Below, in pieces: positions 7,806-62,149 of a DNA stretch of 64,000 bases (position 1 is its first letter; each line of letters begins with the position of its first letter). A program made the position numbers and the translations under genes. Source of the stretch: an uncultured Bacilli bacterium (GTDB taxonomy: Bacteria; Bacillota_I; Bacilli_A; RF39; UBA660); contig CATNCE010000003.1 of the NCBI GenBank assembly GCA_950097225.1, positions 28,493 through 92,492 on the forward strand. The letters run 5' to 3'. Below the pieces are notes generated by a model. The model saw nothing but the letters and a program-made list of their open reading frames with translations, made no database searches and was not told where the DNA came from.

Positions 7806-7834
7806 CAAAAAAAAAGAAGATGTTATTCTTCTTG
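7806..7834 (-). terminator. Rho-independent terminator after rpsU
   Basis: The hairpin is aagaaga / tcttctt. An A-run on the plus strand gives a T-run after the hairpin on the minus strand. Confidence 0.6.
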
Positions 7835-7841
7835 TTCGCGA

Positions 7842-8039: not shown

Positions 8040-8152
8040 TTGCTTCCCTCCTCTCAGTTCAATTGTATTATAATACACTTTATGGCCCTTTGCAAGTTTT
8101 TTTCAAGGATTTAAGGTTATTTTTGGACAACAGAGAATGAAAAAGATGAAGG

Positions 8153-9700: not shown

Positions 9701-9759
9701 TTAATTACCCTTCTATCTTAATATAGATTCTAACAAATATATTAATAATAATCAATATA

Positions 9760-10842
9760 TTATATTAATTTAACAAGTATTTCATTCATGACGTAGATTT
9801 TACTTGGATTTACAAAAAGATATCCATCTTTATAAATTAGTTCTTTAGTTGCAAGCAATTCTTTGATGGGATAAACGTTTTGAATATTCTCATTGTATTT
9901 CTCGAAGAAGTCATCTAAGTTGATACCCTTCATTTTGCGGAGTCCTAGCATAAGTTCATTATCCATCTGATCTTTATAAGACATTAGAATTGATTCTTGT
10001 TTATAATTACCAGCAATATATTCATGGATATTGCGCGTATTAGTGTAGCGAAATGCATCTTTATATCCAGAGGCCCCTAAACCAAAACCATAGTATTCGC
10101 CGTTATTCCAATAATTAAGATTGTGTTTCGATTCATACCCATCTTTGGCAAAATTACTAACCTCATAATGGCTATAGCCAGCTTTTTTTAATTTAGCAAC
10201 AATGGTTTCATACATTTTACTATCTAAATCTTCACTGATGTATTCAACTTTTTCATTTTTTAGTTTTGTATGATCCTCTAATATTAAAGAATACGTCGAG
10301 ATATGAGTTGGATTTAATTTGAGTAGCTTTTTTATGTCTGTTTTTAAGACAGATAACTTCTCGTTAGGAATAGCATACATCAAGTCTAAGTTAATATTCT
10401 CGATACCACGCCTGCGGACCAACTCTAGTTTCTTAGCTACATCATCAAAATCAGCCTCGCGATCGAGAATTTTTAAGTTGGCTGGATCAAAGGATTCGAT
10501 CCCAATACTTATGCGATTAACGCCTCCAGTAACGATGTTGTCTAATAATTCTTCATCAATGTCTTTGGGATTAATTTCGAATGTGCATTCGCAATCTGGC
10601 GCGCGATTGAATATTGCAAGTATTCTAAATAATTTGATGCGCTCCTTTTTTGTCATACAGGAAGGTGACCCTCCTCCAATATAAATTGTTTTAATACGTT
10701 CCCCTTCATAATTTTCCTCTATTTCCTTTTGAAGACTTTCCAAGTAATCATCAACGAAAGAATCAATATGTAATACTTTAGGAAAATCACAATAAGAACA
10801 TATATGTTTACAAAAAGGAATGTGTATATATACTGATTCCAT
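9760..10842 (-). CDS. hemW: Radical SAM heme chaperone HemW (HemN-like)
   Basis: It carries the radical SAM motif YIHIPFCKHICSYCDF and lies downstream of lepA. I set the start at the ATG at 10840-10842, with AAGGTGG 5 nt upstream. Confidence 0.85.
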   Translation of the reverse strand: MESVYIHIPFCKHICSYCDFPKVLHIDSFVDDYLESLQKEIEENYEGERIKTIYIGGGSPSCMTKKERIKLFRILAIFNRAPDCECTFEINPKDIDEELLDNIVTGGVNRISIGIESFDPANLKILDREADFDDVAKKLELVRRRGIENINLDLMYAIPNEKLSVLKTDIKKLLKLNPTHISTYSLILEDHTKLKNEKVEYISEDLDSKMYETIVAKLKKAGYSHYEVSNFAKDGYESKHNLNYWNNGEYYGFGLGASGYKDAFRYTNTRNIHEYIAGNYKQESILMSYKDQMDNELMLGLRKMKGINLDDFFEKYNENIQNVYPIKELLATKELIYKDGYLFVNPSKIYVMNEILVKLI

Positions 10843-12598: not shown

Positions 12599-12622
12599 AA
12601 ACAACATTCCTATTCTGTTGAT

Positions 12623-26506: not shown

Positions 26507-28081
26507 CTACTCTTTTATCATTACATTGGCTGTTGACCAAGCAGAGGGACGATCGCCGACTTCTAAATTCAAAATCCATTCTTGAAATGCAATATCTTTT
26601 ACATAAACTTTGGCATTATCTGGCATCGCAGAGAACATATTAACATCATCTATTACATTACTAGTATCAAAATTGCTTAAGTCCAAACTTGTTAAATTAC
26701 TACAACCATCAAACATACTTCTCATATCACTTACATTACTTGTATCAAAATTACTTATATCTAGACTTGTTAAACTACTACAATGAGAAAACATATAGTT
26801 CATATAACTTACATTACTTGTATCAAAACTACTTATATCTAAATTTATTAAATTACTACAACCATAAAACATATAGCTCATATTTGTTACACTACTTGTA
26901 TCAAAATTACTTACATCTAAACTTATTAAACTACTACAACCATTAAACATATAGCTCATATTTGTTACACTACTTGTATCAAAATTATTTAGATCTAAAC
27001 TTGTGATCTTACGACAACCAAGGAACATCAAAGACATATCAGTAACATTTCTTGTATCAAATGACTCTAAACCAACTATGTCACTCAATAAAGGATACGT
27101 ACTATAAGCACCATAAACACTAAACATCCCACTCATATTTACTACTTCTGAAGTATCAAAATTTGAAACATCTATAACCTGTAATTTTTCACACCAACCA
27201 AACATATTACTCATATTAGTTACATTTGAAGTATCAAAATACTCAAGCCCATCAATGCTCTCCAAACTAAAAAATGAAAAAAACAAATATGAACAATCTT
27301 TAGGAGCATAAATTTTTCCATCCGCTTGAATATACAAAGTATACTTCGAAGAAGCCCCCTCATTTTTAACCAAATAACTCATAACACTTTTATCTTGATT
27401 AGCAGATACATCAAAAATTAATTCATCAAGAGTTTCATGAGCTTGCATTTTATTTTCAAAAACAATCTTTGTTATATCAAATTTATAATCCCAAAAACAC
27501 CCAACTCGATGAGTTATATCAGTATCACTATGTGAATCAAATTCAGTAATCAGCTCCGAATTAGTCATTACGTTATAATTGTATGGAATTGCTAAATGTT
27601 CCTTTTCAATTGGTGTAGAGATTATCTCACATGTTAAAGATACTTCTTTACTCTCAGTTAATACTTTTATTAACTCTACTTCAATGGTTCCTTTTTTACT
27701 TGTTCCAGCTTCAACTATCATTTCACTTGGATTATTTCTTACATAAACGTACTCACTAGTATTACTATTTATACTACAATTTACACTTACATTTGCATCA
27801 TAATTTCTGCTTGTGTTTGCTACCATATACTCTAATGTAGTTTTATCATTTAGATCTAATAACTCTTTTGACTCAAACGTTATTGTTTTCTTATCACTAC
27901 TTATTAAACTATTATCTTTTCTTCCATCTAAGATAGCCTCAGTAAATATTATCTTAAAGTCATCTGCCTCACCTACTAACAAACCACCATTTAATACTAG
28001 TGTTGTTGTTACTGCAGCAAAACCTATTACCAAGATCAATACTGATAAAATAACAGCTATTCTTTTACTATTTTGTGTCAT
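26507..28081 (-). CDS. BspA-family / DUF285 leucine-rich-repeat surface protein carrying the same N-terminal module as the FGE-like proteins
   Basis: Repeats of the form FDTSNVTNMSYMF.GCS.L.SLD.SN have a 26-aa period, as in DUF285. The N-terminus MTQNSKRIAVILSVLILVIGFAAVTT plus a beta-rich module parallels 10916-12598. Confidence 0.8.
   Translation of the reverse strand: MTQNSKRIAVILSVLILVIGFAAVTTTLVLNGGLLVGEADDFKIIFTEAILDGRKDNSLISSDKKTITFESKELLDLNDKTTLEYMVANTSRNYDANVSVNCSINSNTSEYVYVRNNPSEMIVEAGTSKKGTIEVELIKVLTESKEVSLTCEIISTPIEKEHLAIPYNYNVMTNSELITEFDSHSDTDITHRVGCFWDYKFDITKIVFENKMQAHETLDELIFDVSANQDKSVMSYLVKNEGASSKYTLYIQADGKIYAPKDCSYLFFSFFSLESIDGLEYFDTSNVTNMSNMFGWCEKLQVIDVSNFDTSEVVNMSGMFSVYGAYSTYPLLSDIVGLESFDTRNVTDMSLMFLGCRKITSLDLNNFDTSSVTNMSYMFNGCSSLISLDVSNFDTSSVTNMSYMFYGCSNLINLDISSFDTSNVSYMNYMFSHCSSLTSLDISNFDTSNVSDMRSMFDGCSNLTSLDLSNFDTSNVIDDVNMFSAMPDNAKVYVKDIAFQEWILNLEVGDRPSAWSTANVMIKE
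26635..27274. repeat. Tandem coding repeats with a 78-bp period (the LRR units of the BspA-like gene)
   Basis: Units at about 26660-27000 are highly similar at the DNA level (...tatcaaaattacttacatctaaacttattaaactactacaacc...). They lie entirely inside the CDS. Confidence 0.8.
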
Positions 28082-28194: not shown

Positions 28195-29784
28195 CGTAAA
28201 TTACGCAAATTATTTATTTAACGTCACGTTTTTGTTGACCTGTGACGTTACCATTTAAATATCGTGGGGAATATATAATGCTATAATATCTTATTGTATT
28301 TTGGCTTAAGTTTGAAAGGAGCTTATCATGAAAGCTAAAAAATACAAGCATTTATCTTTCGAAGATAGATGCATTATCGAAGAATACCTTAATCATAATT
28401 ATAATTTCACTCAAATTTCTAACAGACTTCAAAAAGACAGAACATGTATTTCTAAAGAAGTTCTAAAACATAGATTTTTAAGAGGAACTGCCTCTGCCGA
28501 AAGAGCTTGTTGCTTTGAATCTAAACCACCATATATTTGTAATGGCTGTGACAAATTTAATCATTGCAAAAAGCAAAAATACTCTTACTCTGCTCATATC
28601 GCTTACAACGAATACAAGCAAACTCTTATTTCAGAAAGAACTCATTTAAATATTACAAAGGAACAAATCGCTTCCATTAATGAAGTTATTTCTCCCCTTA
28701 TGATTTATAAAAATCATTCTGTAAATCAAGTTTATATGGAACATCCAGAATTGCTGCCTTTTTCCAAACCTACTTTTTATAAATATATTGATTTAGGTCT
28801 ATTAAACGTTAGAAATATTGACTTACAAAGAAAAGAACGATGGAAAGTTAAAAAAGAATATGATTATCATAAAGATAAAGTAAATACTTCGATCAAAGTA
28901 GGCCGCTTTTACACAGACTTTAAAGATTTTATGGAATTTCATTCAAATGCCTCTGTCGTGGAGATGGATACCGTAATTGGAACTCAAGGAGGACAAGGAG
29001 GTAAATGTATGCTTACCTTGCTTTTTAGACAATTTAATTTTATGCTTATTTACTTAATGCCATATAAAAAATCTGTATATGTAACTGAATTATTCAATCA
29101 TCTTAAATCTATTTTAGGCATTGAGGAATTTAAACGTTTATTTGAGGTTATATTAACTGATAATGGTACTGAGTTTTCTGATCCTGAGAGTATCGAAATT
29201 GATTTAAATACTGATGAAAAAGTTTGTTCTCTATTCTATTGTGATCCTAATTGCTCTTGGCAAAAAGGTTCTATTGAAAAGAATCATGAATTTATCCGAT
29301 ATATTTTGCCTAAAGGCACTTCCTTTGCATCTCTCAGCCAAGAAGATTGTTATTTAATCTCCTCACATATAAATTCTACTCCAAGATTGTCTCTAAATAA
29401 CAACTCTCCTTACGATTTGGCTTTATTGTTCATTGGAAAAAATAATATTAACAAACTTCAAATAAAAAAAATCGATTATGATAACATCGATCTTTCTTAC
29501 AGATTATTAAGAAAATAATCTAATATTAAAAAACTATTCAAGCCAAAATACAAACAATATTTCCTAACTTTTTAACGGGAAGTTACATTTTTCCAAAAAT
29601 TTTTTTTCAACTTCTCGTTCCTTTTATATGCAATAATTTCGGTTTGATTACTCTAAATTTTATCATTTTTTTAGATTTTTTCAAGTTTTTTTATTAATTA
29701 TCTCCCAAAATCACGTTTAAAACGAGACGTTTTCAATTAAAATACCTATTACTTTTTAGCGAGACATTATATTTTAATCTAACG
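28195..29784 (+). mobile_element. IS30-family insertion sequence; boundaries are tentative
   Basis: It holds a single transposase ORF. It is bounded by the 14-bp direct repeats, and the ends CGTAAATTA... (left) and ...TAATCTAACG (right; reverse complement CGTTAGATTA) form a short imperfect inverted repeat. Alternatively, a minimal unit 28294-29553 is bounded by a perfect 14-bp inverted repeat TTGTATTTTGGCTT. Confidence 0.5.
28328..29518 (+). CDS. IS30-family DDE transposase
   Basis: An N-terminal HTH (LSFEDRCIIEEYL..NFTQISNRL) is followed by the catalytic region VEMDTVIG...ILTDNGTEFSD...CSWQKGSIEKNHEFIRYILPKGTSF, which matches the IS30 pattern W.RG.nEN.NgllR...PKg. SD AAAGGAG precedes the start. 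Confidence 0.85.
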   Translation: MKAKKYKHLSFEDRCIIEEYLNHNYNFTQISNRLQKDRTCISKEVLKHRFLRGTASAERACCFESKPPYICNGCDKFNHCKKQKYSYSAHIAYNEYKQTLISERTHLNITKEQIASINEVISPLMIYKNHSVNQVYMEHPELLPFSKPTFYKYIDLGLLNVRNIDLQRKERWKVKKEYDYHKDKVNTSIKVGRFYTDFKDFMEFHSNASVVEMDTVIGTQGGQGGKCMLTLLFRQFNFMLIYLMPYKKSVYVTELFNHLKSILGIEEFKRLFEVILTDNGTEFSDPESIEIDLNTDEKVCSLFYCDPNCSWQKGSIEKNHEFIRYILPKGTSFASLSQEDCYLISSHINSTPRLSLNNNSPYDLALLFIGKNNINKLQIKKIDYDNIDLSYRLLRK

Positions 29785-32748: not shown

Positions 32749-34431
32749 TTATCCTAAAAGAGTAATTCTTGAGCTGCGATCGAAATATAAATTACCTGGC
32801 ATTGGTGCAAAATGAAAAATCCCAGAACTAACTTGTTCCCTGAACCCACCTCCACGAAAAAACCATGAATTTGTTGCCTCTACAAAAAGAGAATAATCAT
32901 TGTACCAATTATTTTTATAGTTATCAGCTTTATAAAACGGTCCCATTTCTCCTGTTGCATCTCCTAGTATTCTTTTACTATATGTTGTTGCTGTTGAATT
33001 ACTTGCATATACATCTATATACTTACTATATGTGTTTCTTATCTCGGTTAATGTTAATCCACTATTTCCTACTGTTCCATCTCGGTATCCTGCTACATAT
33101 TCCCAAGACCCACCTGACATATCATAAATCCCGCTTATATTTCCGGTTGTACTTGCCAAATACCCTGTTTCTGTATTATATGGCTGGTTATTAGTTGTAC
33201 TTTGTCCTGCATCTTTTGTATTTGCTGCATACCCTGTTAGAAAGTTAGAATTATTATTTATTCTTACTTCTGTGTTTATTCCATATCTTGAATGACTTAA
33301 ATATGCTACTGCTCCCCACTCAGTATTCTTCATCATATGCGAATCTAACTCACGATTATAATTATACATGGCCTTGAAGAAATTCCCTAATGGATTGCTT
33401 CTCCAACTATATACATTTGGTTTTACCTGTATCTTTGATGGGTCGCTTGAGTTTACTTGTGCTGAGGTTGTGTTTATCGCTCCTTTATATCCGGTTTCAA
33501 ATTTACCTACCCATATACCATTTACATCGAAGTTTGTGAAAGCTGGATGCGTTAACCATTCTCCATCTTGAGTACCAGCAGATACAGGGGTTTCCTTACC
33601 TTCAAACTCAATCTCGATTTCTTGTGCTATGCTTTCTGATAATTTGTCAGTTACTCCATCTGCTGGATTCGCATGAAATAACTTATATTTATATCTTGGG
33701 ATCCACACAAAGTACGATTCAATATCATCTTCAATTATTGTATCTCCTACATTGTAAGTTTTACTTGGACTATCAACTAGTATAACTGCATTAGCCCATT
33801 TTTGTTCACAATAATTATACTAAGAATCACTCTCATCAGAATATGTGACAACTCCATTATCAGATAATTCAATGGGTATTAATTCTCCATTTATCACAGG
33901 CTCTGCTCCATTTAATGCATTGACACATGTATCTGTTATTACACCTGCTTCTTCTCTTTCAACTGGGATTGCTATTAATTCACAGGTGAAATTACCTTCC
34001 ATACTTTCAGTTACTACACTTTTTAACTTTACTTTTACTTCTCCAATCTCAACTTCATTTGATGCTAATGTAAAATTACTTGGCTCAATTGTTACATCGA
34101 CTAAATCAGTTAAGTTACTAGAAGTATTATTTAATTCACAATTGATTGTTACATCGGCATCATACTGAGTATTCTTATTCTTTACCCAGAATGTTAAAAT
34201 GGTTTCTTCATTTATATTAGTTAATTCTTTTGCTTCATAACTGATTGTTTTACCATCTAAACTAATTGATGCTTTTCCATCAGTTTTAGTATTTATGAAT
34301 ATAACATCATCTAGGAATGCATTGTTAAAACCAATATTTAAGTTACTATTAATTATTAAGTTAGTTACGACACTAGCAAAACCAATTACAAGTACGATAA
34401 CAAAGAAATATATGATACTTTTCTTTTTCAT
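32749..34431 (-). pseudogene. Paralog of 10916-12598 (FGE-like surface protein) interrupted by a single in-frame TAG
   Basis: ORFs 33820-34509 and 32749-33708 are in the same frame. The only interruption is a TAG at 33820-33822, where the paralog has TGG (Trp, 11987-11989). The start is the ATG at 34429-34431 (MKKKSIIYFF). Confidence 0.7.
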
Positions 34432-34454
34432 AAGCAACATCCTATTCTGGTAAT

Positions 34455-34484
34455 ATTGTATCATAAAAAGAGCCTCTTTTACAA
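34455..34484 (-). promoter_or_regulatory. Promoter of the interrupted paralog
   Basis: It reads TTGTAA, an 18-nt spacer, then TGaTACAAT, the same layout as 12623-12652. Confidence 0.45.
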
Positions 34485-34507
34485 CGATTATGGTGTAGTA
34501 TTTTGTC

Positions 34508-34541
34508 AAAAAAAGAATGTATAAATTATTTATACATTCAT
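34508..34541 (-). terminator. Terminator after frr
   Basis: The hairpin gaatgtataaa / tttatacattc spans the frr stop codon, with an A-run on the plus strand before it. Confidence 0.55.
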
Positions 34542-41010: not shown

Positions 41011-41087
41011 ATTACCACCTAAATTAGATTATACCATAATTAAAGCAACTATTATAGTTGCTTTATGTTTTTTTAATTTGTTTTTTA

Positions 41088-41597
41088 TTATGGTGCTTGA
41101 ATTAACCAACCATTTCTTGTATAACAAGATGTTCCACCAGCATTATGACATGCAGTGTATGGATGATCAGCTGGAGTTGTTCCCTTACCATATGTAGTTA
41201 TTTGTGGAGTGCTTGGTGTAGGCATTCCGTAGTCATTAATATTGTAGTTGTGTAAGATGTAGTTATCATCATATAATTCGATAATATATTTTACATCATC
41301 AACATCCATGGCATTAACTATTACGAATCCTTTATATGAGCCAGTTCCTGAATATCCTAAATCTTTTTGAATATCATATACATAGAATCCTGCTCCTGCT
41401 ATTGCTCCACTGTTAGAGTCATATACATATTGCTCTTGAGTATTTAAAACTACTTTTTGAGCATACATAGAAAACGACTTCTTACGAGCTTGGTTCATTA
41501 CATCTAGAACCGATGGAATAGCCAAAATCATTATAATAGCAAGTACAACGATAACTGCTAATAACTCAACTAAGGTAAAACCATTTTTCTTCTTCAT
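41088..41597 (-). CDS. Type IV pilin / pseudopilin-like protein (169 aa), candidate major subunit
   Basis: The class III signal reads MKKKNG|FTLVELLAVIVVLAIIMILAIPS, with G at -1, F at +1 and E at +5. The start is the ATG at 41595-41597. Confidence 0.75.
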   Translation of the reverse strand: MKKKNGFTLVELLAVIVVLAIIMILAIPSVLDVMNQARKKSFSMYAQKVVLNTQEQYVYDSNSGAIAGAGFYVYDIQKDLGYSGTGSYKGFVIVNAMDVDDVKYIIELYDDNYILHNYNINDYGMPTPSTPQITTYGKGTTPADHPYTACHNAGGTSCYTRNGWLIQAP

Positions 41598-41677
41598 AAT
41601 TCTTCCTCTTTCTATCATAATTTTATTATATATTTGAATACTATTTTAGTCAATATCATTTGTATTTATTTGACAAT

Positions 41678-43852
41678 CTAGACAATATTATCTTTTTGGT
41701 CATTTTCTGCGTTTTCGCTTTTATTTTTCTTTTTAATGACACTTAATTTTTGATGTTTATTAGCACGAATGATTATTAAACTCATAACAAGTATTACGCC
41801 TAAAACGATGGCGATATTGCGCAAGTACTTAGTTCTTGCTGAAGTCTTACGCGAATATCTTATAGTAATTTTATATGTTTTCTTATAATAACCATTTGGA
41901 CTTATTACATCAATTTCAACTACACTTCCATCTTGAAGATTTTCATTACCATTAACGGATGTTAAGGCAGCTTTAGCCATAGGCTCAATACTTAGGAGTA
42001 AATCGTCTAAAGTAAATACGGTTAAATCGTACTCATAAGTATTTGGATCAAAGGCAAATGAGTAGCCTGATGCCGTTAGAAGACGAAGTTGAGCATTTGA
42101 TTCATCAAGGGAAGGATCAGGTAATCCTGAGTCCGGATCCCAATCTGGCTCAACAGGTTTGGTTGCTAAAGTCACTTTATTTCCTTGAACATCTAGGCGG
42201 CTAACGACAATGCGATAAGTATTTTCTTTTTCTGTCGTCGCATTTTTAAGTTTGATTAATACGACATTATCCCCTACTTTTAAATCTGTATTACCAGTTA
42301 TCTCAACTGATGTTACATCTGGTGTACGAGCAACAGCATGAACTCCTATACTGGTTTGACTATTTGGAACATTTATTTCATAACTGAAACGAATTGAGAT
42401 GAATGGTAGCGCATAACCATCAACACTTAAATTCTCTAAAAGAATGGTATCATCAGTTAGATCGACTGGTTTAGTAGTGGTTGTATAATCAGTTGTTATT
42501 TGTTCATTCGCTGTAGTTGTTTCTTGAGTATAGGTTCCACGAGTTGTTGATGTATTTGTTTCATGTGAATATGTTGGATTTGTTGTTGGCGGTGTTGTTT
42601 GATGCGTATACGTTTGTGTTGATGTTGAAGTGTTATTTCCTGTATATGTATATGTTTCACGAGTATCTGCTGTTGTATTATCATGGATATAAGTTTGTGT
42701 CGTTGATGTTGAAGTGGCTGATTCATTAAGACGCCATTTAGCATATAAGTACACGTTTTCATAACCGATGACGCATCCTGCAGTATCCTTTTTCTCGACT
42801 TTTTCAACACGATTAGATTGATTTCCGCTTAGTTGTTTATTAAATGCTTTGTCATAATACCAGCCATCAAATACGTAACCTTTCTTCGTTGGTGATGGAA
42901 TTGTAGTATTAGCTTGACATCCTACGCATTGATTTATGACATTGTTGATATTTGGTGCGAATTCTCCACTGTTGGCATTTAAGACAATATTGAAATTCTT
43001 AGCAGAATCTGGAACGGCTGGACAATTACGATTAACTGTCGTTGTTGTATTTTTATTAACTCTAGTTGTCTTAGTCGTTGTTGTTCCTTTATAAGTTACT
43101 GGATCCCCCGCCTTACAAGTTGGAGAGGCAATCGCCATAGGATTAACTTTAATAGTTTTAGATTTTTCTTTGAATTTGTCGATACTCTTGTAAAAAGCAG
43201 TTTTGGTAGCTTGATTTTCGTCATTAAGGTTGACGTTTTCAACTCCAAAATCACGACTCTTCATGGTTACGATAACATCATAATCATAATCGGTTACAAT
43301 GTTAGCTGCTGCTCCATAAGATTGGCACTTTTTAGCAGAATTTACTAATTTCCCGTTTTCGCCATATTGGTATAAGGCACACATAGTTTGGTTCTCACCG
43401 ATAGTTTGAGTTATGGTGATAATTTTAGCTCCCTCTGGAAAACTGTAGGATGTATCTGGCGTACACGTACTGCCTTGAGCAATACAATAACGCACATATT
43501 CGATAGTTTTAGATGATGACAAGGAAACTGTGGCACTTTTCTTTTTGGAATCATTAATGGCGCGGCGATTGACTTTAACCCATCCTTCAAAGTCTCCTGT
43601 ATTTTTTATATCTAAATCGGTGCTAATATCATACACATTACAATCATTATTGACTGTGTTATCATCCATATCCTGTGTATATTTGGCAATGGCTTTACTT
43701 TGTAGGCTTTGTGCGTACTGATAAAAAGTTTCTTTTTTAGCTTTGTTGGCTGTCTCTAAGATGGATGGTATGGAAATAATTAGTATCAAAGCTAAGATGA
43801 CGATAACTGCTAGCAATTCCACTAAAGTAAAACCCTTATTATGTTTCTTCAT
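41678..43852 (-). CDS. Giant prepilin-type protein (724 aa): class III signal, Listeria-Bacteroides B-repeat, Thr-rich stalk, two cadherin-like domains and a C-terminal TM anchor
   Basis: The signal reads MKKHNKG|FTLVELLAVIVILALILIISIPS. The B-repeat reads KKGYVFDGWYYDKAFNKQL...VYLYAKW. A T-rich tract is encoded at about 42490-42733. Cadherin-like units begin LENLSVDGYALPF... and LRLLTASGYSFAFDPNTYEYDLTV.... The TM segment is NIAIVLGVILVMSLIII. The start was chosen at 43850-43852 because a sigma-A promoter lies at 43880-43908. Confidence 0.7.
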   Translation of the reverse strand: MKKHNKGFTLVELLAVIVILALILIISIPSILETANKAKKETFYQYAQSLQSKAIAKYTQDMDDNTVNNDCNVYDISTDLDIKNTGDFEGWVKVNRRAINDSKKKSATVSLSSSKTIEYVRYCIAQGSTCTPDTSYSFPEGAKIITITQTIGENQTMCALYQYGENGKLVNSAKKCQSYGAAANIVTDYDYDVIVTMKSRDFGVENVNLNDENQATKTAFYKSIDKFKEKSKTIKVNPMAIASPTCKAGDPVTYKGTTTTKTTRVNKNTTTTVNRNCPAVPDSAKNFNIVLNANSGEFAPNINNVINQCVGCQANTTIPSPTKKGYVFDGWYYDKAFNKQLSGNQSNRVEKVEKKDTAGCVIGYENVYLYAKWRLNESATSTSTTQTYIHDNTTADTRETYTYTGNNTSTSTQTYTHQTTPPTTNPTYSHETNTSTTRGTYTQETTTANEQITTDYTTTTKPVDLTDDTILLENLSVDGYALPFISIRFSYEINVPNSQTSIGVHAVARTPDVTSVEITGNTDLKVGDNVVLIKLKNATTEKENTYRIVVSRLDVQGNKVTLATKPVEPDWDPDSGLPDPSLDESNAQLRLLTASGYSFAFDPNTYEYDLTVFTLDDLLLSIEPMAKAALTSVNGNENLQDGSVVEIDVISPNGYYKKTYKITIRYSRKTSARTKYLRNIAIVLGVILVMSLIIIRANKHQKLSVIKKKNKSENAENDQKDNIV

Positions 43853-43879
43853 ATCTCTTACCCTCTCTATTATATTTTT

Positions 43880-43908
43880 ATTATAGTTTATTATCTTTTT
43901 TTTTTCAA
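43880..43908 (-). promoter_or_regulatory. Sigma-A promoter of the pilin operon, containing an A10 homopolymer
   Basis: The minus strand reads TTGAAA, a 17-nt spacer, then TATAAT. The -35 box and the first 7 spacer nt are part of a run of 10 A (plus-strand T10 at 43896-43905). Confidence 0.5.
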
Positions 43909-43929
43909 TATAAAAGGAATAATTATTCA

Positions 43930-44151
43930 TTATTCCATCATCTTTATGACATTTGATATTAGTTCTGCATTGTCAATGGCGTTATTGATTTTATCGAAAT
44001 GATTACTACGATTATATTTTTTATACTCACTTAATAATTCATCATAATATTTGGGGTTACGATTTAATTTTATATAATAGTAAGAGTGTTCTTTTAAATA
44101 GCGATGAAGTTTTTCATTCTCTTTAATTTTCAATGCTAGACTTACTTCCAT
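43930..44151 (-). CDS. ylbE: YlbE-like protein
   Basis: A 73-aa ORF. ...LHRYLKEHSYYYIKLNRNP..YDELLSEYKKY... fits the YlbE pattern (F.RE.P.WYR.LSR.P), and it is paired with ylbD. Confidence 0.6.
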   Translation of the reverse strand: MEVSLALKIKENEKLHRYLKEHSYYYIKLNRNPKYYDELLSEYKKYNRSNHFDKINNAIDNAELISNVIKMME

Positions 44152-44484
44152 TTAATCACCATATATTTTATTAATAGGATTTTCAACACTTATGGTTGCC
44201 TCTGGTGTTTTCTTGGTTAGTTCTTGAATTATGCCAATTACTTTTTGAGCGTTATTAACGTGGTGCTCAATTGAGTCAATATTGATATTTTTTAAAATAC
44301 TTCCTAGTTCTTTAATACGAGAGTCATCCTCCTCTACAAAATATTTACTCCAGGTCTTATCATCTTCTCCATATATGTCATAAATTTGATAAAAGTCTTG
44401 AAAAGTCATCTCTTTATTTTTTACGTATTTTAATAGTTCAGGATGTTTACCAATAAATTCTTTGAAATTTGCTTTTTTATCCAT
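44152..44484 (-). CDS. ylbD: YlbD-like (putative spore-coat-associated) protein
   Basis: FKEFIGKHPELLKYVKNKEMTFQDFYQIYDIYGEDDKTWSKY parallels B. subtilis YlbD FKEFVKKHPKMIQEVRNGKKTWQEFYEDWYLLGEDDDMWSDY, which I quote from memory. Confidence 0.7.
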   Translation of the reverse strand: MDKKANFKEFIGKHPELLKYVKNKEMTFQDFYQIYDIYGEDDKTWSKYFVEEDDSRIKELGSILKNINIDSIEHHVNNAQKVIGIIQELTKKTPEATISVENPINKIYGD

Positions 44485-49954: not shown

Positions 49955-50671
49955 TTAGCCAAACTTCTTGGTAAAATACTCGCCCTCTTCAAGATATATA
50001 CTATCACATTTGATATAGTTTTTTCTACATTTATATAAATTATTTTCACTATTTATGTATTTTTTATGATAATAGTTAGGTGGGTATAAGTATCTTTCTA
50101 GTTTAAATTTATGAAATATGTATTTAAAATACATAATATTGTGAATATTCATATAGTAAAGGATGGTAAAAATGAAGATGTTTTTAGAGATGATGAAAAG
50201 GATGAAAAGGCAAGCAAAACTGATAATATTGACTATTATCAGAGTATAACGATATTTAATTGTAGTTTCAATTATACTTGTCAATATTTTACTACCATCA
50301 CTAGGAATGATGGGGAGTAGATTAAATACTATAATACTTAAATTCAGTTCCCGAAATATTTGGTAATTGTAGCTTGGGGCTTTAGGGCATACTAAAAGTA
50401 GCAGAATCTGCATCACTATACCAGCTATACTTATCAAGAAGAGTTTGGTTGATGGCAAGTTATAATTGATATTAGTTTTTATTATACCACCAAAAGGATA
50501 AATATGAATACTATCGATATGTAAGCGAAATATTTTAATCATTATGAAATGACCCATTTCATGAAAAAACATGATAATGAGATAGATGATGAGATAATTT
50601 ATATATCCAGACAAAATTAAAAGAAGATAAAAAAGATAAGTAAATATACTTATTTTATAAGAAGTCTTCAT
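49955..50671 (-). CDS. spoIVFB: Site-2 (M50) metalloprotease, SpoIVFB-like
   Basis: The HExxH motif lies in a TM segment (MFFHEMGHFIMIK), and the protein is polytopic. It sits directly upstream of rplU, as spoIVFB does in B. subtilis. Confidence 0.7.
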   Translation of the reverse strand: MKTSYKISIFTYLFYLLLILSGYINYLIIYLIIMFFHEMGHFIMIKIFRLHIDSIHIYPFGGIIKTNINYNLPSTKLFLISIAGIVMQILLLLVCPKAPSYNYQIFRELNLSIIVFNLLPIIPSDGSKILTSIIETTIKYRYTLIIVNIISFACLFILFIISKNIFIFTILYYMNIHNIMYFKYIFHKFKLERYLYPPNYYHKKYINSENNLYKCRKNYIKCDSIYLEEGEYFTKKFG

Positions 50672-51167
50672 AGCTCAAATAGGTATCGTGATTTTTAAAT
50701 TCTAGGTATAATTTATTTGTTATAGTGCTACCAATGATAGTGTCTTTATGGATGTAATCATATAATTTAACATTTATGTTTTCTAAGCCATCGTACACGA
50801 TATTTACTCCTTCATCTGAATTTATGATAATAGATGTCCCAAGATCACTTTTTTTACCAATAAATATTACTACCCCATTTTTAATACTTTTAATGACATA
50901 GTTTTTATCAACTTCTAATAAGTAACCATTATCTTGTTTAGATATATTTTTGTAGTTTATTTTTTCACTAGAAACATATTCGTTTTTTAAACTCTTCCCA
51001 AAAAGAATGCTACTCTTACTGCGGATATATGAAAAATCAATAAAATTATCAAAGAGAAGATGATGAGATATGATTCCTTGATCAATTAAAATGCACAACA
51101 AAAAAAATAAAATGAGTGATGCAAGCATGCGCTTTAAGAAATTTTTAACTTGATTTAATTTTTCCAT
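50655..51167 (-). CDS. spoIVFA: Membrane-anchored degenerate M23/LytM-domain protein, SpoIVFA-like by position
   Basis: A TM segment (LASLILFFLLCILI) is followed by a LytM-like C-terminus (GVVIFIGKKSDLGTSIIINSDEGVNIVYDGLENINVKLYDYIHKDTIIG) that lacks obvious metal ligands. The start is the ATG at 51165-51167. Confidence 0.5.
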   Translation of the reverse strand: MEKLNQVKNFLKRMLASLILFFLLCILIDQGIISHHLLFDNFIDFSYIRSKSSILFGKSLKNEYVSSEKINYKNISKQDNGYLLEVDKNYVIKSIKNGVVIFIGKKSDLGTSIIINSDEGVNIVYDGLENINVKLYDYIHKDTIIGSTITNKLYLEFKNHDTYLSYEDFL

Positions 51168-51510
51168 GTCCTCTCCTACTACTAACATGATATTTAGTTA
51201 ATTTTAAAATTATAACTAAAAAGATATTGAGAACAAAGAAGATGTCAATCTTATATAGGATATAATAAAAGCAAGCATAAAGGGCAAGTTCGAATACAAA
51301 TGAACGATTAATATATTTAAATATTAAGATATTAATGGTGTACATGATGGAGAGAATAATAATTAGGTTGATGTTTTCACTTAATAGAAATAAGATGAGT
51401 GATGAAGTAATATACTTTTTTAAATTCAAATGATTAAGAGCATATAGATATGTATTGATATTAAAACCAGTTATGCTATGGGTAAAAAAATCAATGAGAA
51501 TATATTCCAT
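51145..51510 (-). CDS. mreD: Rod-shape protein MreD (called by position and topology)
   Basis: A 121-aa polytopic ORF immediately after mreC. Confidence 0.5.
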   Translation of the reverse strand: MEYILIDFFTHSITGFNINTYLYALNHLNLKKYITSSLILFLLSENINLIIILSIMYTINILIFKYINRSFVFELALYACFYYILYKIDIFFVLNIFLVIILKLTKYHVSSRRGHGKIKSS

Positions 51511-57099: not shown

Positions 57100-57930
57100 A
57101 TGAGAAATTTTTTTATATTTTTGACTTTTTTTATGTTTATCGTGCGCAAAGAACAGGTTATTATTGGTGCTTCGACGGCTTTAAGTGTTTGGGCAAAAAG
57201 CATATTTCCTATACTATTTCCGACATTTATTGTTGCCGATTTATTACAGACTAATCAGCTACTTTTTAAAATATGCTATAAGTTAGGAGTTATTTTTAAG
57301 AAGTTATTTAAAACGAGTTCTTACGCTTTATACATATTTGTAATAAGTATGTTTTGTGGAACCCCCACTAATGCAAAGTGTTTAAAAAATTTATATGACA
57401 AAGGTCTGATTGAAGAAAAAACCATTTCCAAGATTTTAACATTTACGTTTTTCTTTAATCCCTTCTTTGTGCTATCATTTACCAATATCAAAGTTTTATT
57501 AATTCTATGGATTAGTAATATTCTTACAGGTATTATCTTAAGAAATAAGTACTCATCAGTTTATGATGTCAAAGATATCCCTAGGGCTAAGTTTAATTTA
57601 AATGCCTCAATTACTAATAATTTGCAAATAGTTATCAATATACTAGGAACTATAGCTGTATTTATGATTATCAGCTATGCTATTCCCTTTGTTAATCCTT
57701 TAGTTAATGCACTGGCAACGTCTTTTTTAGAGGTGTCTACGGCCTTATTTAAGATAAATATGTATTATAATTATGATTATTTTTATTTGATTGCCCTTAG
57801 TTTAGGAGGACTAAGTATTATCATGCAAATAAAAAGTATCATGAAAGATACTTTTATTGATTATAAATTAATTATGATATCGCGCATTTTAACTCTAGTA
57901 ATTAGTTTAATTATATGTTTTTTGACATAG
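57100..57930 (+). CDS. ylbJ: YlbJ-like nucleoside-recognition (Gate) domain membrane protein, shorter than B. subtilis YlbJ
   Basis: GASTALSVWAKSIFPILFPTFIVADLL matches the YlbJ N-terminal block, and the protein is polytopic. It is convergent with the pseudopilin operon and overlaps it by 24 nt. Confidence 0.55.
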   Translation: MRNFFIFLTFFMFIVRKEQVIIGASTALSVWAKSIFPILFPTFIVADLLQTNQLLFKICYKLGVIFKKLFKTSSYALYIFVISMFCGTPTNAKCLKNLYDKGLIEEKTISKILTFTFFFNPFFVLSFTNIKVLLILWISNILTGIILRNKYSSVYDVKDIPRAKFNLNASITNNLQIVINILGTIAVFMIISYAIPFVNPLVNALATSFLEVSTALFKINMYYNYDYFYLIALSLGGLSIIMQIKSIMKDTFIDYKLIMISRILTLVISLIICFLT

Positions 57931-58650
57931 AGCGGCACTAGAATCACAGCGACATTGGAACATATTATTATTACTAGTTTTACATTTAAAGTAGCTATTT
58001 CCAGTGAATATGAAGCCAAAGTTTAAATCATAATGTTCGCCATCACTATTGCGAATAGGTATGACTAATGATGCAGCATTTTGAGCTGAGCCAGATGCAG
58101 CAGTATAAAGCATGTAAGCACGCTCGCTTAAATCAACCTCATCAGGATACTCTTTCATATTTTGAGTTCCGTTCTTCCACGAGGTTAAGATTGGAACATT
58201 CCCACTATACTTAGTATATCTTCCACGAACATATTGAACCATCCATGTCGCTGAATCAGGACGCCCTACATATTTTCCATTTACAACATCGAATTTGGCA
58301 TAAGTATTATATATCATCAAGAAACCGATACGATCCTCAATATAGTCAGCTGCATACTCGATTTTTAGACATTTAAATTTGTTTTCATAGCCATGGTTTA
58401 GTAAATCAGTAGTTACATTAGCTTCTGATAGAACACATGAGCTAACACTTTTTATTCCAAAGTCACCTATATCATCTTCTACTTCTTTTATTATCGTCGA
58501 TTGATTTATGACATAATTAGATTGAATCTGATTGGATACATCTTCATTACGAACTTGAACTAATAAATTAAATAAGACGGCCATAACTAGTGCAATAATA
58601 CAAATACTTATTAAGACCTCCATAATTGTTGTTCCGTTTGGTTTACGCAT
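57907..58650 (-). CDS. Minor pseudopilin-like protein (247 aa)
   Basis: The N-terminus reads MRKPNG|TTIMEVLISICIIALVMAVLF, with G at -1 and E at +5. Its start is coupled to the upstream stop through TAATG. Confidence 0.6.
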   Translation of the reverse strand: MRKPNGTTIMEVLISICIIALVMAVLFNLLVQVRNEDVSNQIQSNYVINQSTIIKEVEDDIGDFGIKSVSSCVLSEANVTTDLLNHGYENKFKCLKIEYAADYIEDRIGFLMIYNTYAKFDVVNGKYVGRPDSATWMVQYVRGRYTKYSGNVPILTSWKNGTQNMKEYPDEVDLSERAYMLYTAASGSAQNAASLVIPIRNSDGEHYDLNFGFIFTGNSYFKCKTSNNNMFQCRCDSSAALCQKTYN

Positions 58651-59216
58651 TAGTTCACCTCCATTGATGCATGGAATACTTCATATGTTCCATCTAAGCT
58701 ATTATAAGTTTTTTTAAACTTTACAATTAAAATGTAATAATTGCTTCCTGGACCAATTTCACGGATATAATCAATTGTCGTCGCATCAAATTTATTTAGC
58801 CATTCAGTAGAGGATGCTGAATTAGTTACTTTGTTTGGATTAAGATAGTAAATCTTATCTATTTCAAAGGCTCTTTTTAATTGAGCTAAATACCCTGAGT
58901 ATGAGGGACTTGATAAATCACACGTGAAGCTTACATCAGATCCATATGTTAATTTACGACATTCACCAGATGATAGATTATGTTGCATATAATACTCAAC
59001 ACTATTACCTGTTCCGCCAGCAGCTATTTTATAATTATCCATTGCTTTTTTTACAAAGTAAGTTTTATAAATTGTCTCAGTTGTATCAAAAGTATTACGT
59101 TGACGTGATTTACGAAGAATATATGAATATGATGAAAATAAAAGTACTAATGTTATAGAAAGAATAGCTACAACGATTATTGTTTCCATAAATACAAATC
59201 CATTTTTCTTTACCAT
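58650..59216 (-). CDS. Minor pseudopilin-like protein (188 aa)
   Basis: The N-terminus reads MVKKNG|FVFMETIIVVAILSITLVLLF, with G at -1, F at +1 and E at +5. It is coupled through TAATG. Confidence 0.65.
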   Translation of the reverse strand: MVKKNGFVFMETIIVVAILSITLVLLFSSYSYILRKSRQRNTFDTTETIYKTYFVKKAMDNYKIAAGGTGNSVEYYMQHNLSSGECRKLTYGSDVSFTCDLSSPSYSGYLAQLKRAFEIDKIYYLNPNKVTNSASSTEWLNKFDATTIDYIREIGPGSNYYILIVKFKKTYNSLDGTYEVFHASMEVN

Positions 59217-60226
59217 TACTGCTTCACCCCATTCGTAAATATGAAAGGATCTAAGTATGTTCCCTTTCCTCCAGCAATATACGTATTATTACTAGTCGTA
59301 CTAAGTGTTTTTTCGGCAACTAAACGGAAATTATATAAATTACTTAACTTTGACGATAAGACATCGCTGGATTTAGATTCGGTGATATCAACGATCATGT
59401 CTCCGGCATTATGAGTATAGGCAATTGGAGATGCATAGTAACAAAAGCTAATATACTTGCTGTTGCGATCGATTGGCTCGTCTTGAACATTCATATAACC
59501 AAATGTATTACTAGATAAATACACGGCTTTAGAACCATTGAATGTCCCCCCACAATAGTTTTTTAGTAAATTCATTTGTGTCCCACTAGTAAAGTTATAT
59601 TTCTTTATTTCATAGTAAGATCCGGCCGGATAAGTTATAGTAGCACCATTAGCAGCAACTCCAGTTATGGCGCTATCAACATATACTAAGTAATTTCCGC
59701 CAGGATTAAAAATTTCAGCAGCAATGTATGGATCAGTAATTTCACTACGAATTCTATTTAAAAATGATGATGTAACCATATGAATATCAAACCCACCATA
59801 TTTTATAGCGTTAGTATATGCCCCATCAGCGCGTAACGTTTCATAAAAATTAACAGTTAAGGTGTGATATTTAGTAATTTTATCAGATCCAGCTATTTTA
59901 TAATTTATATTGACATTTTGCGTAGTTAAATCACTAATAAAATAGTACTTTTTGTTAGTGCCCGAAGTTTCAATTTTAGCAACTATCCAAGTTCCATCAG
60001 AATTGAGGATATTATCATCACTTGTAAATTTAATATGATCTCCTACACTTAAATCAGTTAGTTTAGTGTTATTAATAGCATAAATAGTGTCTTTAGAGGA
60101 AGTGTTAATTTTGGAAATAAGGATACGATTGTGTAAATAATTAGCTATTAGCGCAACAAAAAGAGAAAGGAATACTAGAAAAAAAGAATATAAAATACTA
60201 GTTGCAATAAAGCCATTTTTTTTCAT
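59216..60226 (-). CDS. Pseudopilin-like protein without E+5 (336 aa)
   Basis: The N-terminus reads MKKNG|FIATSILYSFFLVFLSLFVALI, which has the pilin-like charge/G/hydrophobic layout but S rather than E at +5. It is the first gene of the three-gene operon. Confidence 0.5.
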   Translation of the reverse strand: MKKNGFIATSILYSFFLVFLSLFVALIANYLHNRILISKINTSSKDTIYAINNTKLTDLSVGDHIKFTSDDNILNSDGTWIVAKIETSGTNKKYYFISDLTTQNVNINYKIAGSDKITKYHTLTVNFYETLRADGAYTNAIKYGGFDIHMVTSSFLNRIRSEITDPYIAAEIFNPGGNYLVYVDSAITGVAANGATITYPAGSYYEIKKYNFTSGTQMNLLKNYCGGTFNGSKAVYLSSNTFGYMNVQDEPIDRNSKYISFCYYASPIAYTHNAGDMIVDITESKSSDVLSSKLSNLYNFRLVAEKTLSTTSNNTYIAGGKGTYLDPFIFTNGVKQ

Positions 60227-60348: not shown

Positions 60349-60546
60349 ATGTATAATAATTGTAATAACAACCATCATCATGGGGGCGGATTTATAACAG
60401 TACTAGCTATTTTAGTCTTAGCAGTTTTGATATTTTATCAAGTAATAATCACTTTAATCTTGCCTTTGCGATTTAATTTGTTTATTTTGCTAATCGAAGT
60501 TTTGTTAATGTTTTTCTTATTTTTTCGCATAATATGGCATTATTAA
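60349..60546 (+). CDS. Doubtful small membrane ORF (65 aa) with a YjcZ-like N-terminus
   Basis: NNNHHHGGGFITVLAILVLAVLIF resembles YjcZ-type sporulation peptides (GGGFALIVVLFILLII). The ORF overlaps the 3' end of ysxE and lies between that gene and its likely terminator. Confidence 0.3.
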   Translation: MYNNCNNNHHHGGGFITVLAILVLAVLIFYQVIITLILPLRFNLFILLIEVLLMFFLFFRIIWHY

Positions 60547-61347
60547 TTTCTCTGTTTTAAAGATATAGTCAAATAATCGACGCATTGCACTGACGTTTAA
60601 CATTTCGTCATTGTAGGGAATGATTTTCTCGGGAATTGCAATGTTTAGAAAAAGTAGTTTTTTTTCTTCTTCTGTTAATTGACATTTATCTAGGTATATT
60701 TTTAATAATGTATCGAAGTTAAGATGTTCCCATTCTTGATGATAGAATTTCGTGATATCTAGTATAGGTGAATCAAAGGTAGCGTTATCCCAACTTATTA
60801 GATACTCACGATTATTCTTTAATAGATGATTTAAGGTGATATTTCCGTGATTTAAACAAACCCGTTCTTTAGTTTTATCTTGAACCATTTCATACCAAGA
60901 AGAAGCCTCAGTTTTTAAGAAGGCAAATAACTCTAGTAATTTGGAGTAATTACGCAAGAATATTGTTTCACTTGGTGAGGGAAATTCAACTAATTCAATG
61001 TTCTCGAGCATACTAGCATAATATTGATCTAGGTAATTGGTATGCCCGATAAAGTTGTCATAAATGCTTTTATATTTATCTTTGCTAACTTCTTTATTAT
61101 AAGAAGTTTTATTATGCAATAATGCAACAATATTTATTAGGTCTTCACCCTTTTGATAGGAATCAAGAGATAAATCTTTAATATATGGATAAATCGACTC
61201 CTCTTGCTCGCGCTTTTCATAATTTAGATAATTGTTAAAATCACGAGATGAGAGATAAGAAAATAATTCTTCATTATCTTTATCGCGTTTTTTAACAATT
61301 TCGTCATTGATAATAGATACTTTGTTGATTTTTTTTATCTTATTCAT
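60517..61347 (-). CDS. ysxE: CotS/YsxE-type kinase-fold spore coat protein
   Basis: The phosphotransferase-like block is LNHGNITLNHLLKNNREYLISWDNATFDSPILDITKFY. It lies directly downstream of the spoVID-like gene, overlapping it by 8 nt. Confidence 0.55.
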   Translation of the reverse strand: MNKIKKINKVSIINDEIVKKRDKDNEELFSYLSSRDFNNYLNYEKREQEESIYPYIKDLSLDSYQKGEDLINIVALLHNKTSYNKEVSKDKYKSIYDNFIGHTNYLDQYYASMLENIELVEFPSPSETIFLRNYSKLLELFAFLKTEASSWYEMVQDKTKERVCLNHGNITLNHLLKNNREYLISWDNATFDSPILDITKFYHQEWEHLNFDTLLKIYLDKCQLTEEEKKLLFLNIAIPEKIIPYNDEMLNVSAMRRLFDYIFKTEKLIMPYYAKK

Positions 61348-62149
61348 CTTTTACAGGAATTATTAGTTTTAAACCAATTTTTATCTCATCAAATTCATTA
61401 TAGGCGCGAATCTCTTCTGTTGTCGTGTTGAATTTCTTAGATATTGATTCAAATGTATCATCGTTTTCACACACGTGTACATGATATGTTATATATTTTT
61501 CTTCTTTGTCAATATTTTTTAAGATTGTTGTCTCTACTGGATCATTGCTAATAATAGGTTCAAGATTTATTTCACGAGTTTCTTCTTTTATAACAGGCTC
61601 TAGAGTTTCTTCACGTGCTTCCTCTTTTATAGCAGGCTCTAAAACTTCTGGTTCACTAGCCTCTTCAACGCTTTCATTTCGGCAATCTTCTGGTTGTATT
61701 ATAGTATCTTCATCGAGTATTTCTAGATTATCTTCTAATTTTGGTTCTTTTTCTTCTTTAAACGATACGATATCAACTTCATGACTCTCTAAAAAACGAT
61801 TGAAAGCTTCTTCATCAAACTCTTCTTCAATTAATTCTTCTTCGTAAGTTATTTCATAATCAATATTGATTTTTAAAGTATTGTCTTCTAGTTCGTAAGT
61901 AAAATCTTCGATTTCTACTTTAGAAGATTCTTTGACTAAATTGGCTATCTCTTCTCTAAATGGTAGATCATATTTAAAACTTTTTTTGTTTAGAGATAGT
62001 TCATGCGATTTGTATGTTCCTTCAATTAAAAAGGAACCGTCAACTCGTTCATCATCTTCACTAAAGTTACATTCAAGGCTAATACTAGTTATGCTAGATA
62101 CTGTGTCATCAAAAGCTAAATCCTTCTTATAGTTTATTGTCTTTTTCAT
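61340..62149 (-). CDS. spoVID: SpoVID-like morphogenetic coat protein: SPOCS-like N-terminus, acidic repeats and a C-terminal LysM domain
   Basis: The N-terminus reads DLAFDDTVSSITSISLECNFSEDDERVDGSFLIEGTYK. The acidic repeats read EVLEPAIKEEAREETLEPVIKEETREINLEPII. The LysM domain reads YHVHVCENDDTFESISKKFNTTTEEIRAYNEF. Confidence 0.65.
   Translation of the reverse strand: MKKTINYKKDLAFDDTVSSITSISLECNFSEDDERVDGSFLIEGTYKSHELSLNKKSFKYDLPFREEIANLVKESSKVEIEDFTYELEDNTLKINIDYEITYEEELIEEEFDEEAFNRFLESHEVDIVSFKEEKEPKLEDNLEILDEDTIIQPEDCRNESVEEASEPEVLEPAIKEEAREETLEPVIKEETREINLEPIISNDPVETTILKNIDKEEKYITYHVHVCENDDTFESISKKFNTTTEEIRAYNEFDEIKIGLKLIIPVKDE

Follow-up and report, generated by a model that had tools for sequence, protein, structure and literature searches.

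Few surface machines of prokaryotes are as widespread as type IV filaments, and to our knowledge the way in which they are anchored and their length is set in monoderms is poorly understood. The closest described relatives of the proteins considered here are the modular pilins, of which Raynaud et al. in 2021 reported more than 1,200 proteins with 264 architectures (PMC8179133). Dataset S1 of that work includes the pilin module IPR012902 combined with a cadherin-like domain (IPR025883, once or twice) and the same module combined with an InlB B-repeat (IPR013378). According to Imam et al. in 2011, true pilins invariably have a single membrane domain, and the predictor PilFind requires a length of less than 350 residues (PMC3244431). 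We analysed a 64-kb stretch of DNA (hereafter the window, meaning the whole stretch) from an uncultured gut Bacilli/Erysipelotrichales bacterium, in which two adjacent minus-strand genes encode a giant modular prepilin with a second, C-terminal membrane anchor and a small pilin, respectively. We see about an even chance that these proteins are part of a dispersed type IV pilin set in which the giant protein is a membrane-leashed modular minor pilin.

Both proteins start with almost the same class III signal, as an initial annotation made by reading the window had pointed out. The giant protein begins with MKKHNKG/FTLVELL (MKKHNKG/FTLVELLAVIVILAL...) and the small protein, whose gene starts at position 41597, begins with MKKKNG/FTLVELL (MKKKNG/FTLVELLAVIVVLAI...), where the slash marks the predicted cleavage site. 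The Pfam model N_methyl (PF07963) gave 29.1 bits for the giant pilin and 32.1 bits for the small pilin (cutoff 21.2), and TIGR02532 gave 23.0 and 27.2 bits, respectively (cutoff 16.3), so that both signals score over the curated cutoffs of two libraries. In an alignment of 46 giant-pilin sequences G7, F8, T9, L10 and E12 are invariant, as are the corresponding five residues in 60 small-pilin sequences. The alpha-1 helix of the giant pilin carries Glu5 (mature numbering), which is invariant in the same 46 sequences, and Pro22, which is conserved in them; Pro22 is also conserved in the small pilin. As judged from these signals, both prepilins would be cleaved by a prepilin peptidase.

The likeness between the two proteins is not confined to the signal. 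The N-terminus of the giant pilin is 45% identical to the small pilin over 104 amino acids (aa), a stretch that takes in alpha-1 and continues into the first strands. By sequence, the two N-termini are paralogs, and a mere membrane anchor would not have to be conserved to this degree. The AlphaFold2 model of residues 1-290 of the giant pilin, with a mean predicted local distance difference test score (pLDDT) of 84.3, has a helix at residues 10-63 followed by a larger beta domain. The model of the small pilin (pLDDT 90.1) has a helix at residues 9-63, a beta-sheet and a C-terminal loop closed by the invariant pair C150-C158. In both proteins, a predicted alpha-1 of about 54 residues is followed by a beta-sheet. 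A weak second BLAST segment between the two proteins suggests that about 90 residues (97-185), among them four conserved Cys, are inserted into the pilin module of the giant protein; C71, C123, C130, C158 and C176 are conserved in the giant-pilin alignment. More than 1,200 homologs of the small pilin were found, and some sources annotate its relatives as "type II secretion system protein" or "PulG". When the small-pilin profile was searched against PDB sequences, the best match was PilE1 of S. sanguinis, a major pilin from the type IV pilus of a monoderm (E 1.3e-8), over alpha-1 only. We infer that the small protein is probably the major pilin.

The remaining parts of the giant pilin that had been read from the sequence, namely a B-repeat, a Thr-rich stalk, two cadherin-like units and a C-terminal anchor with a basic tail, were borne out by hidden Markov model (HMM) scores, residue composition and hydropathy. 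The Flg_new model (PF09479) gave 27.3 bits (cutoff 27), TIGR02543 gave 27.8 bits (cutoff 20.95) and the cadherin-like model (PF12733) gave 42.1 bits over two stretches (cutoff 24.2); PF07963, PF09479 and PF12733 thus all score over their cutoffs in this protein. The second cadherin-like domain falls at profile positions 532-632 in the search of a large protein collection. The two Thr-rich linkers are about 45 and 93 residues long, and residues 376-465 of the stalk contain 43-53% Ser/Thr in 30-residue windows. In the order outward from the C-terminal helix, the protein consists of the two cadherin-like domains, the Thr-rich stalk, the optional B-repeat and the pilin module. The cadherin-like domains therefore sit next to the membrane anchor and not at the far end, which weakens the label "adhesin domains" that had been given to them. 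From the positive-inside rule, the basic tail is predicted to be cytoplasmic. Sortase anchoring was considered for this end of the protein and rejected, since no LPXTG precedes the helix. Elsewhere in the window (8153-9700, minus strand), a 515-aa protein with an ordinary Sec-type signal combines cadherin-like domains (70.5 bits) with a C-terminal membrane helix, which a long charged tail follows. One of its repeats shares 34% identity with the cadherin-like domain of the giant pilin, which in its C-terminal half thus resembles a conventional surface protein of the same organism.

This plan is conserved. We found about 50 homolog clusters of the giant pilin at 90% identity, all with the same overall plan. 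A search of 1.84 billion proteins gave about 30 full-length representatives at 50% identity, the rest of its match list being giant multi-repeat cadherin-like proteins. The prepilin motif is present in all 50 clusters and the C-terminal helix in 48 of them, the other two being truncated proteins. In the 48 helix-bearing clusters, 2-7 Lys/Arg occur within 12 residues after the helix, and the tails that follow are long and variable (18-85 residues). All giant orthologs taken from genome loci also have the helix. The constant core comprises the pilin module, the Thr-rich stalk, the two cadherin-like domains, the helix and the tail; about half of the orthologs (P0025-P0049) lack the B-repeat, and the number of residues in Ser/Thr-rich sequence ranges from 31 to 196 per ortholog. 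Other large prepilin proteins in related Bacilli loci, many of which carry BspA/DUF285 repeats, have no C-terminal helix. The second anchor is thus specific to the giant-pilin family. The giant and small genes sit side by side wherever an orthologous locus was examined, a sample that covers at least 17 species-level metagenome-assembled genomes; the feature is confined to one clade. When one genome per species was scanned with the pilin profile, 12 species representatives had the pair. Each of these is either a metagenome-assembled genome or the metagenomic species "Firmicutes bacterium CAG:582"; they are labelled Erysipelotrichales, Bacilli or Firmicutes, except for two labelled otherwise.

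The best start of the giant-pilin gene is the ATG at 43852, which has a GAGGG ribosome-binding site 8 nucleotides (nt) upstream, and all orthologs begin 6-8 residues ahead of the Gly. The ATG at 43930 upstream was rejected as a start, since it is not conserved and the ribosome-binding site fits 43852; the first base of this longer open reading frame (ORF) is the last base of the ylbE stop codon, and with it the ORFs of the two genes span 41088-43930. Each of the two genes has its own near-consensus promoter-like site. The hexamers, the spacing and the distance to the start codon of these sites are the same in all 15 orthologous loci for the small gene, where the site lies in the 59-nt spacer. 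For the giant gene they recur in 14 of the 15, with proteins only about 45-55% identical. Taken together, the sites have been kept while the proteins of the pair diverged to 45-65% identity. This footprinting is good evidence, at the level of sequence, that the pair consists of two separately promoted genes. The genes had been described as a two-gene operon with its own promoter; their adjacency and the upstream promoter-like site stand, and with a site for each gene the pair is not simply one operon. A promoter of its own fits the idea that the small pilin needs higher expression. A hairpin lies just downstream of the small-pilin gene, and its role as a terminator of the pilin transcript is uncertain because its T-run is on the plus strand, opposite to the pilin genes. 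On the minus strand, this hairpin is followed by an extended -10-like sequence, TGGTATAAT, for nfo. The coordinates of the features are listed in Table 1.

Table 1. Features of the pilin genes in the 64-kb window (residue numbers refer to the giant pilin; a slash marks the predicted cleavage site)
Feature	Position	Strand	Remark
Giant modular prepilin gene (gene 1)	41678..43852	minus	724 aa; stop codon included
Class III signal leader MKKHNKG	43832..43852	minus	predicted prepilin-peptidase cleavage after Gly7
Pilin module, residues 8-245	43118..43831	minus	alpha-1 helix 10-63, beta-sheet, putative insertion of about 90 residues
First short Thr-rich linker, residues 246-290	42983..43117	minus	residues 259-276 with pLDDT <50
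Listeria-Bacteroides (InlB B-repeat, Flg_new) domain, residues 291-375	42728..42982	minus	PF09479, TIGR02543
Thr/Ser-rich low-complexity stalk, residues 376-468	42449..42727	minus	length variable in orthologs
Cadherin-like beta-sandwich domain 1, residues 472-552	42197..42439	minus	best PF12733 stretch
Cadherin-like beta-sandwich domain 2, about residues 585-672	41837..42100	minus	boundaries approximate
C-terminal transmembrane helix NIAIVLGVILVMSLIII, residues 679-695	41768..41818	minus	mean Kyte-Doolittle hydropathy 2.94
Basic low-complexity tail, residues 696-724	41681..41767	minus	RANKHQK...KKK after the helix
Sigma-A-type promoter-like site, giant pilin gene	43880..43908	minus	TTGAAA-17-TATAAT, 11/12 match
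Small pilin gene (gene 2)	41088..41597	minus	169 aa; candidate major subunit
Sigma-A-type promoter-like site, small pilin gene	41625..41653	minus	TTGACT-17-TATAAT, within the 59-nt spacer
11-bp hairpin just 3' of the small pilin gene	41041..41065	.	T-run on plus strand
Pilin-like protein, 336 aa	59216..60226	minus	MKKNG/FIATS..., without Glu5; candidate tip cap
Pilin-like protein, 188 aa	58650..59216	minus	MVKKNG/FVFMET; 88 homolog clusters
Pilin-like protein, 247 aa	57907..58650	minus	MRKPNG/TTIMEV; N_methyl 13.3 bits, below threshold

The pair that had been reported is real, and it is not the whole of the pilin-like set: three further pilin-like genes, overlooked in the first reading, lie contiguously on the minus strand 14 kb from the pair (Table 1). 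The N-termini of all three proteins are conserved in orthologs. The 336-aa protein matched no curated family, and its N-terminus is conserved in the orthologs of loci L094 and L096. The 188-aa protein matches curated models only below threshold, and the sources name members of its family "type II secretion system protein" or "pseudopilin PulG". In the 37 aligned sequences of this family, G6 and E11 are invariant, and hhalign of its profile against that of the small pilin gave a probability of 96% (E 3.8e-9) over the N-terminal 40 columns. The G-x4-E motif of the 247-aa protein is conserved in three orthologs. In each of the five loci checked, the cluster has Lon on one side and ylbL on the other; most of these loci also have spoVID-like and ysxE-like genes on the Lon side. 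Among the 188-aa members that could be placed, the cluster family appears to be restricted to the giant-pilin clade, and the loci of the most divergent members of the 188-aa family show the same arrangement without machinery genes. Assembly of type 4 filaments starts from a tip complex of minor pilins that is capped by a subunit without Glu5 (PMC10191384). The 336-aa protein, which has no Glu5, may be such a cap.

According to the model that we favour, the genes of a type IV filament would be dispersed over the chromosome, and the pair would encode two of its pilins. The small protein of 169 aa would be the major pilin, expressed from its own strong promoter, and the pilin module of the giant protein would dock into the same filament via its nearly identical alpha-1 helix. 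The rest of the giant chain would run through the Thr-rich stalk and the two cadherin-like domains to the transmembrane helix and the cytoplasmic basic tail, and a giant subunit incorporated in this way would stay leashed to the membrane. The leash would anchor the filament or cap its length, acting either at the tip or at the base. The three genes at 57907-60226 would supply the priming or tip complex, and the ATPase, the platform protein and the prepilin peptidase would be encoded elsewhere in the genome. Both the polymerisation of the filament and the tethering role are conclusions that we infer. By our own rough estimate, about 155 disordered residues and three beta-sandwich domains would give the leash a reach of about 65 nm, which would be enough to cross a Gram-positive wall and far shorter than a typical pilus. 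The flexible part of the chain separates the pilin head from the membrane-proximal domains, which is the order to be expected if the head leaves the membrane and the rest pays out. A broader proposal is that the family constitutes a class of membrane-tethered pilins, whose incorporation anchors the filament, caps its length or lets the cell sense tension in the absence of an outer membrane; we regard this as possible and on the whole doubtful.

A number of results weigh against this model. The initial annotation had found no PilB, PilC or PilD in the 64 kb, and we reached the same result: a scan for Walker A and GxGDxK motifs found none in the window, tblastn with the PilB, PilC and PilD of locus L081 gave no match to it, and HMMs built for each of these proteins from four sequences reached at most 11.7 bits, the best being on an ABC ATPase. 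None of the three was present among the Pfam-annotated genes for about 7 kb and 10 kb past the two window ends, and the fetched loci of the clade had none at less than 10 kb from their pilin genes. Both AlphaFold2 models show a helix followed by strands, and Foldseek found no significant match to either in the PDB (best E values of 0.016, to CBM-like beta-sandwiches, and 1.9). The fold search that the initial annotation had proposed thus speaks neither for nor against the "lollipop" fold of pilins, an extended alpha-1 of about 53 residues packed on an antiparallel beta-sheet, and support for such a fold in the two models comes from the topology of the secondary structure and the homology of alpha-1. 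With the ComGC equivalog (NF040999; cutoff 75), the two proteins scored 29.9 and 33.4 bits over their N-terminal 50-57 residues, and with the GspG equivalog (TIGR01710; cutoff 88.85) they scored 28.4 and 27.9 bits; by these scores neither protein is a ComGC or GspG equivalog. The described modular pilins also use short linkers (PMC10191384), unlike the giant pilin.

As to the machinery, L081, a locus from a more distant Bacilli metagenome-assembled genome, has a compact cluster at 6065-10411 in which pilC-pilD-pilB stand beside the gene for a related 135-aa pilin, and the wider group thus does make pilus machinery. The ATPase of L081 has the variant Walker A sequence GATGTGKST, which the standard pattern GPTGSGKT misses, and its PilC has an N-terminal extension of about 190 residues. 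A still bolder possibility than a class of tethered pilins is that the clade with the pair is wholly without the classical PilB/PilC motor and uses its pilins otherwise.

Several other explanations of the giant protein were weighed. It might never enter a filament and be instead a surface protein anchored at both ends, whose prepilin N-terminus serves for insertion and cleavage only; its pilin head could even so bind the small pilin inside the membrane. The two membrane segments are in the correct positive-inside arrangement for such a protein, and the Ser/Thr-rich stalk leading to a C-terminal anchor is like that of archaeal surface proteins (PMC3387779). The lack of machinery nearby would be expected as well, many proteins of related Bacilli fuse the same pilin N-terminus to BspA/DUF285 surface repeats, and the Sec-signal protein of the window also combines cadherin-like domains with a C-terminal helix. 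What a simple anchor would not need is Glu5, Pro22 and 45% identity to the neighbouring pilin well past the hydrophobic segment. The strict co-inheritance of the giant gene with the small pilin and the position of the stalk, between the pilin module and the membrane-proximal cadherin-like domains, which suggests that the pilin end moves off the membrane, also speak for incorporation. We consider it unlikely, though to be taken seriously, that the protein stays out of the filament. It is rather improbable, in our judgement, that the C-terminal helix is a sorting signal removed by some protease, which would leave an ordinary modular adhesin pilin displayed at the tip. A helix with a basic tail does resemble C-terminal sorting signals in general, a conserved TK-x-LR motif precedes it, and display at the tip is the known mode for the grafted domains of modular pilins (PMC8179133). 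On the other hand, LPXTG is absent from the window protein and its orthologs, no model of a C-terminal sorting domain matched, the tails, variable and 18-85 residues long, are unlike typical sorting signals, and the annotated loci contain no sortase-like or rhombosortase-like gene linked to the pair.

The filament itself might also be of another kind, namely a short Com or type II secretion pseudopilus in which the tethered subunit is a component of a piston across the cell wall. ComGC and GspG are the best NCBIfam matches of both N-termini, relatives are annotated "type II secretion system protein" or "PulG", and a leash of tens of nm, by our own estimate, fits a filament that spans the wall. 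These matches are limited to alpha-1, however, with scores far under the equivalog cutoffs (33 versus 75 for ComGC and 28 versus 89 for GspG), the 169-aa pilin has a predicted head with a beta-sheet in contrast to the helical head of Com pilins (PMC10191384), and the annotated loci show no comGA, comGB or comEA-type gene in linkage with the pair. A pseudopilus is thus a quite improbable alternative. The remaining explanation, that the prepilin-like N-termini are a chance resemblance or an artefact of gene calling, draws on the fact that short hydrophobic N-terminal motifs are common and that the bare motif gives many false positives (PMC3244431). It is effectively refuted by conservation: the scores exceed the curated cutoffs of both libraries, the residues of the motif do not vary in the 46, 60 and 37 aligned sequences of three families, and the start sites, the ribosome-binding site and the promoter-like sites are conserved.

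The usual neighbourhood of the pair is parC, ylbD, ylbE, the pair, nfo, rnfC-like and rnfD-like, so the location between ylbD-ylbE and nfo noted at the outset holds in most loci examined; one lineage keeps the pair despite different neighbours. None of the homologs in the orthologous loci examined lies in a comG or pil operon. An origin from a mobile element or prophage was rejected on the ground of the synteny with parC, ylbD, ylbE and nfo, which is conserved across the clade. Sporulation-type genes are found beside both pilin clusters, namely ylbD (coat protein family), ylbE, a ylbJ-like gene, a spoVID-like LysM gene, a ysxE-like gene, yqfD and a SpoIVFB-like M50 peptidase gene; their positions are 43930-44484, 57100-57930, 60517-62149, 6421-7545 and 49955-51188, and the names ylbJ, spoVID and ysxE come from reading of the sequences alone. 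Spore-specific expression of the pilins was considered in view of these neighbours and set aside as not indicated, since the promoters look sigma-A-like. In locus L056 (MGBC164624), a genome that also has the pair, a lone gene for a 205-aa prepilin-like protein lies at 6404-7021 between engB and der and not in a comG operon. Pilin genes in the clade are thus scattered among housekeeping genes.

The window also encodes a DUF285/PARCEL-repeat surface protein (26507-28081; 192 bits) and two paralogs (10916-12607 and 32749-33708/33820-34509), all on the minus strand. The three have in common an unusual N-terminal signal-anchor and first domain, and the copy at 32749-34509 looks split into two ORFs. 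In related Bacilli metagenome-assembled genomes, DUF285/BspA repeats are fused to prepilin N-termini instead. The sole sizeable plus-strand gene in the long minus-strand run, at 28328-29518, looks by eye like an IS30-family transposase gene.

The pilin set and its second anchor matter for recognition, as a pilin with two membrane segments breaks a working rule: the small pilin has the single transmembrane segment on which PilFind relies, while the giant pilin has a second C-terminal helix, and PilFind would reject it on both its size and the number of its membrane segments. The second anchor would also force a specific mechanism, that of a leashed subunit, which is testable, and a membrane-tethered pilin, if true, would be a mode of filament control of which we found no description. 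In an abundant group of uncultured gut Bacilli, the pilin genes are thus dispersed between genes of housekeeping and sporulation type and each has a promoter-like site to itself, so that pilus searches based on operons will miss such systems.

The small pilin compares best with PilE1 of S. sanguinis and the type IVa major pilins (PDB 8pfb, 2hi2 and 5kua). It has in common with them a short leader, Gly-1, Phe1, Glu5, Pro22 and a predicted alpha-1 of about 53 residues, and its predicted C-terminal disulfide loop is like their D-region. With PilE1, only alpha-1 aligns, and for the globular head Foldseek gave no significant match in the PDB. From the ComGC and GspG pseudopilins, the pair differs in size and in the predicted fold of the head, and there is no comG or gsp operon. 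The cluster at 57907-60226 resembles the minor-pilin tip complexes GspH-I-J-K, PilH-I-J-K and S. sanguinis PilA-B-C in being a small gene cluster with a large subunit that has no Glu5. It differs from them in having three genes and not four, in matching no curated model and in lying 14 kb from the major pilin and away from the machinery. GspK has a domain inserted into its pilin sheet, as is suggested for the giant pilin module.

In archaea, the two halves of the giant pilin have separate counterparts. Class III signals of the prepilin type, like that of the giant pilin, occur on the sugar-binding surface proteins of the "bindosome", which are not filaments, and archaeal proteins with a Sec signal have a glycosylated Ser/Thr stalk before a C-terminal membrane anchor (PMC3387779). 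The signal and the stalk with its anchor are on different proteins there, whereas the giant pilin combines both in a bacterium and with a full pilin head.

The giant pilin is closest to the modular pilins, such as PilB (vWA) and PilC (lectin) of S. sanguinis, which join the same N-terminal class III pilin module to non-pilus domains in a monoderm host. It shares the combination that defines the class, a module of the IPR012902 type with non-pilus domains (N_methyl, Flg_new and two Cadherin-like stretches), and some entries of Dataset S1 may be members of its family. Modular pilins have a short linker and a free C-terminus with no terminal membrane segment, and the giant pilin departs from this in having long Thr-rich stalks and a helix with a cytoplasmic tail; nor are the giant-pilin genes beside pil genes, unlike those of modular pilins. 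The word "transmembrane" does not occur in the main text of PMC8179133, and a second membrane segment is discussed neither there nor in the later review PMC10191384, both of which describe short linkers and display at the tip. Targeted literature searches for prepilins with a C-terminal anchor and for pili in Erysipelotrichales returned nothing specific. The initial claim that the architecture is not a described system thus holds for the second anchor and the long stalk, for which no description was found, and does not hold for the grafted domains, since modular pilins have been described and the same architectures are listed (PMC8179133). We concluded that what appears to be new is the conserved C-terminal membrane anchor together with the long stalk, that pilins with grafted domains are known as a class, and that the giant pilin is a member of the prepilin superfamily and can, in a loose sense, be counted among the modular pilins.

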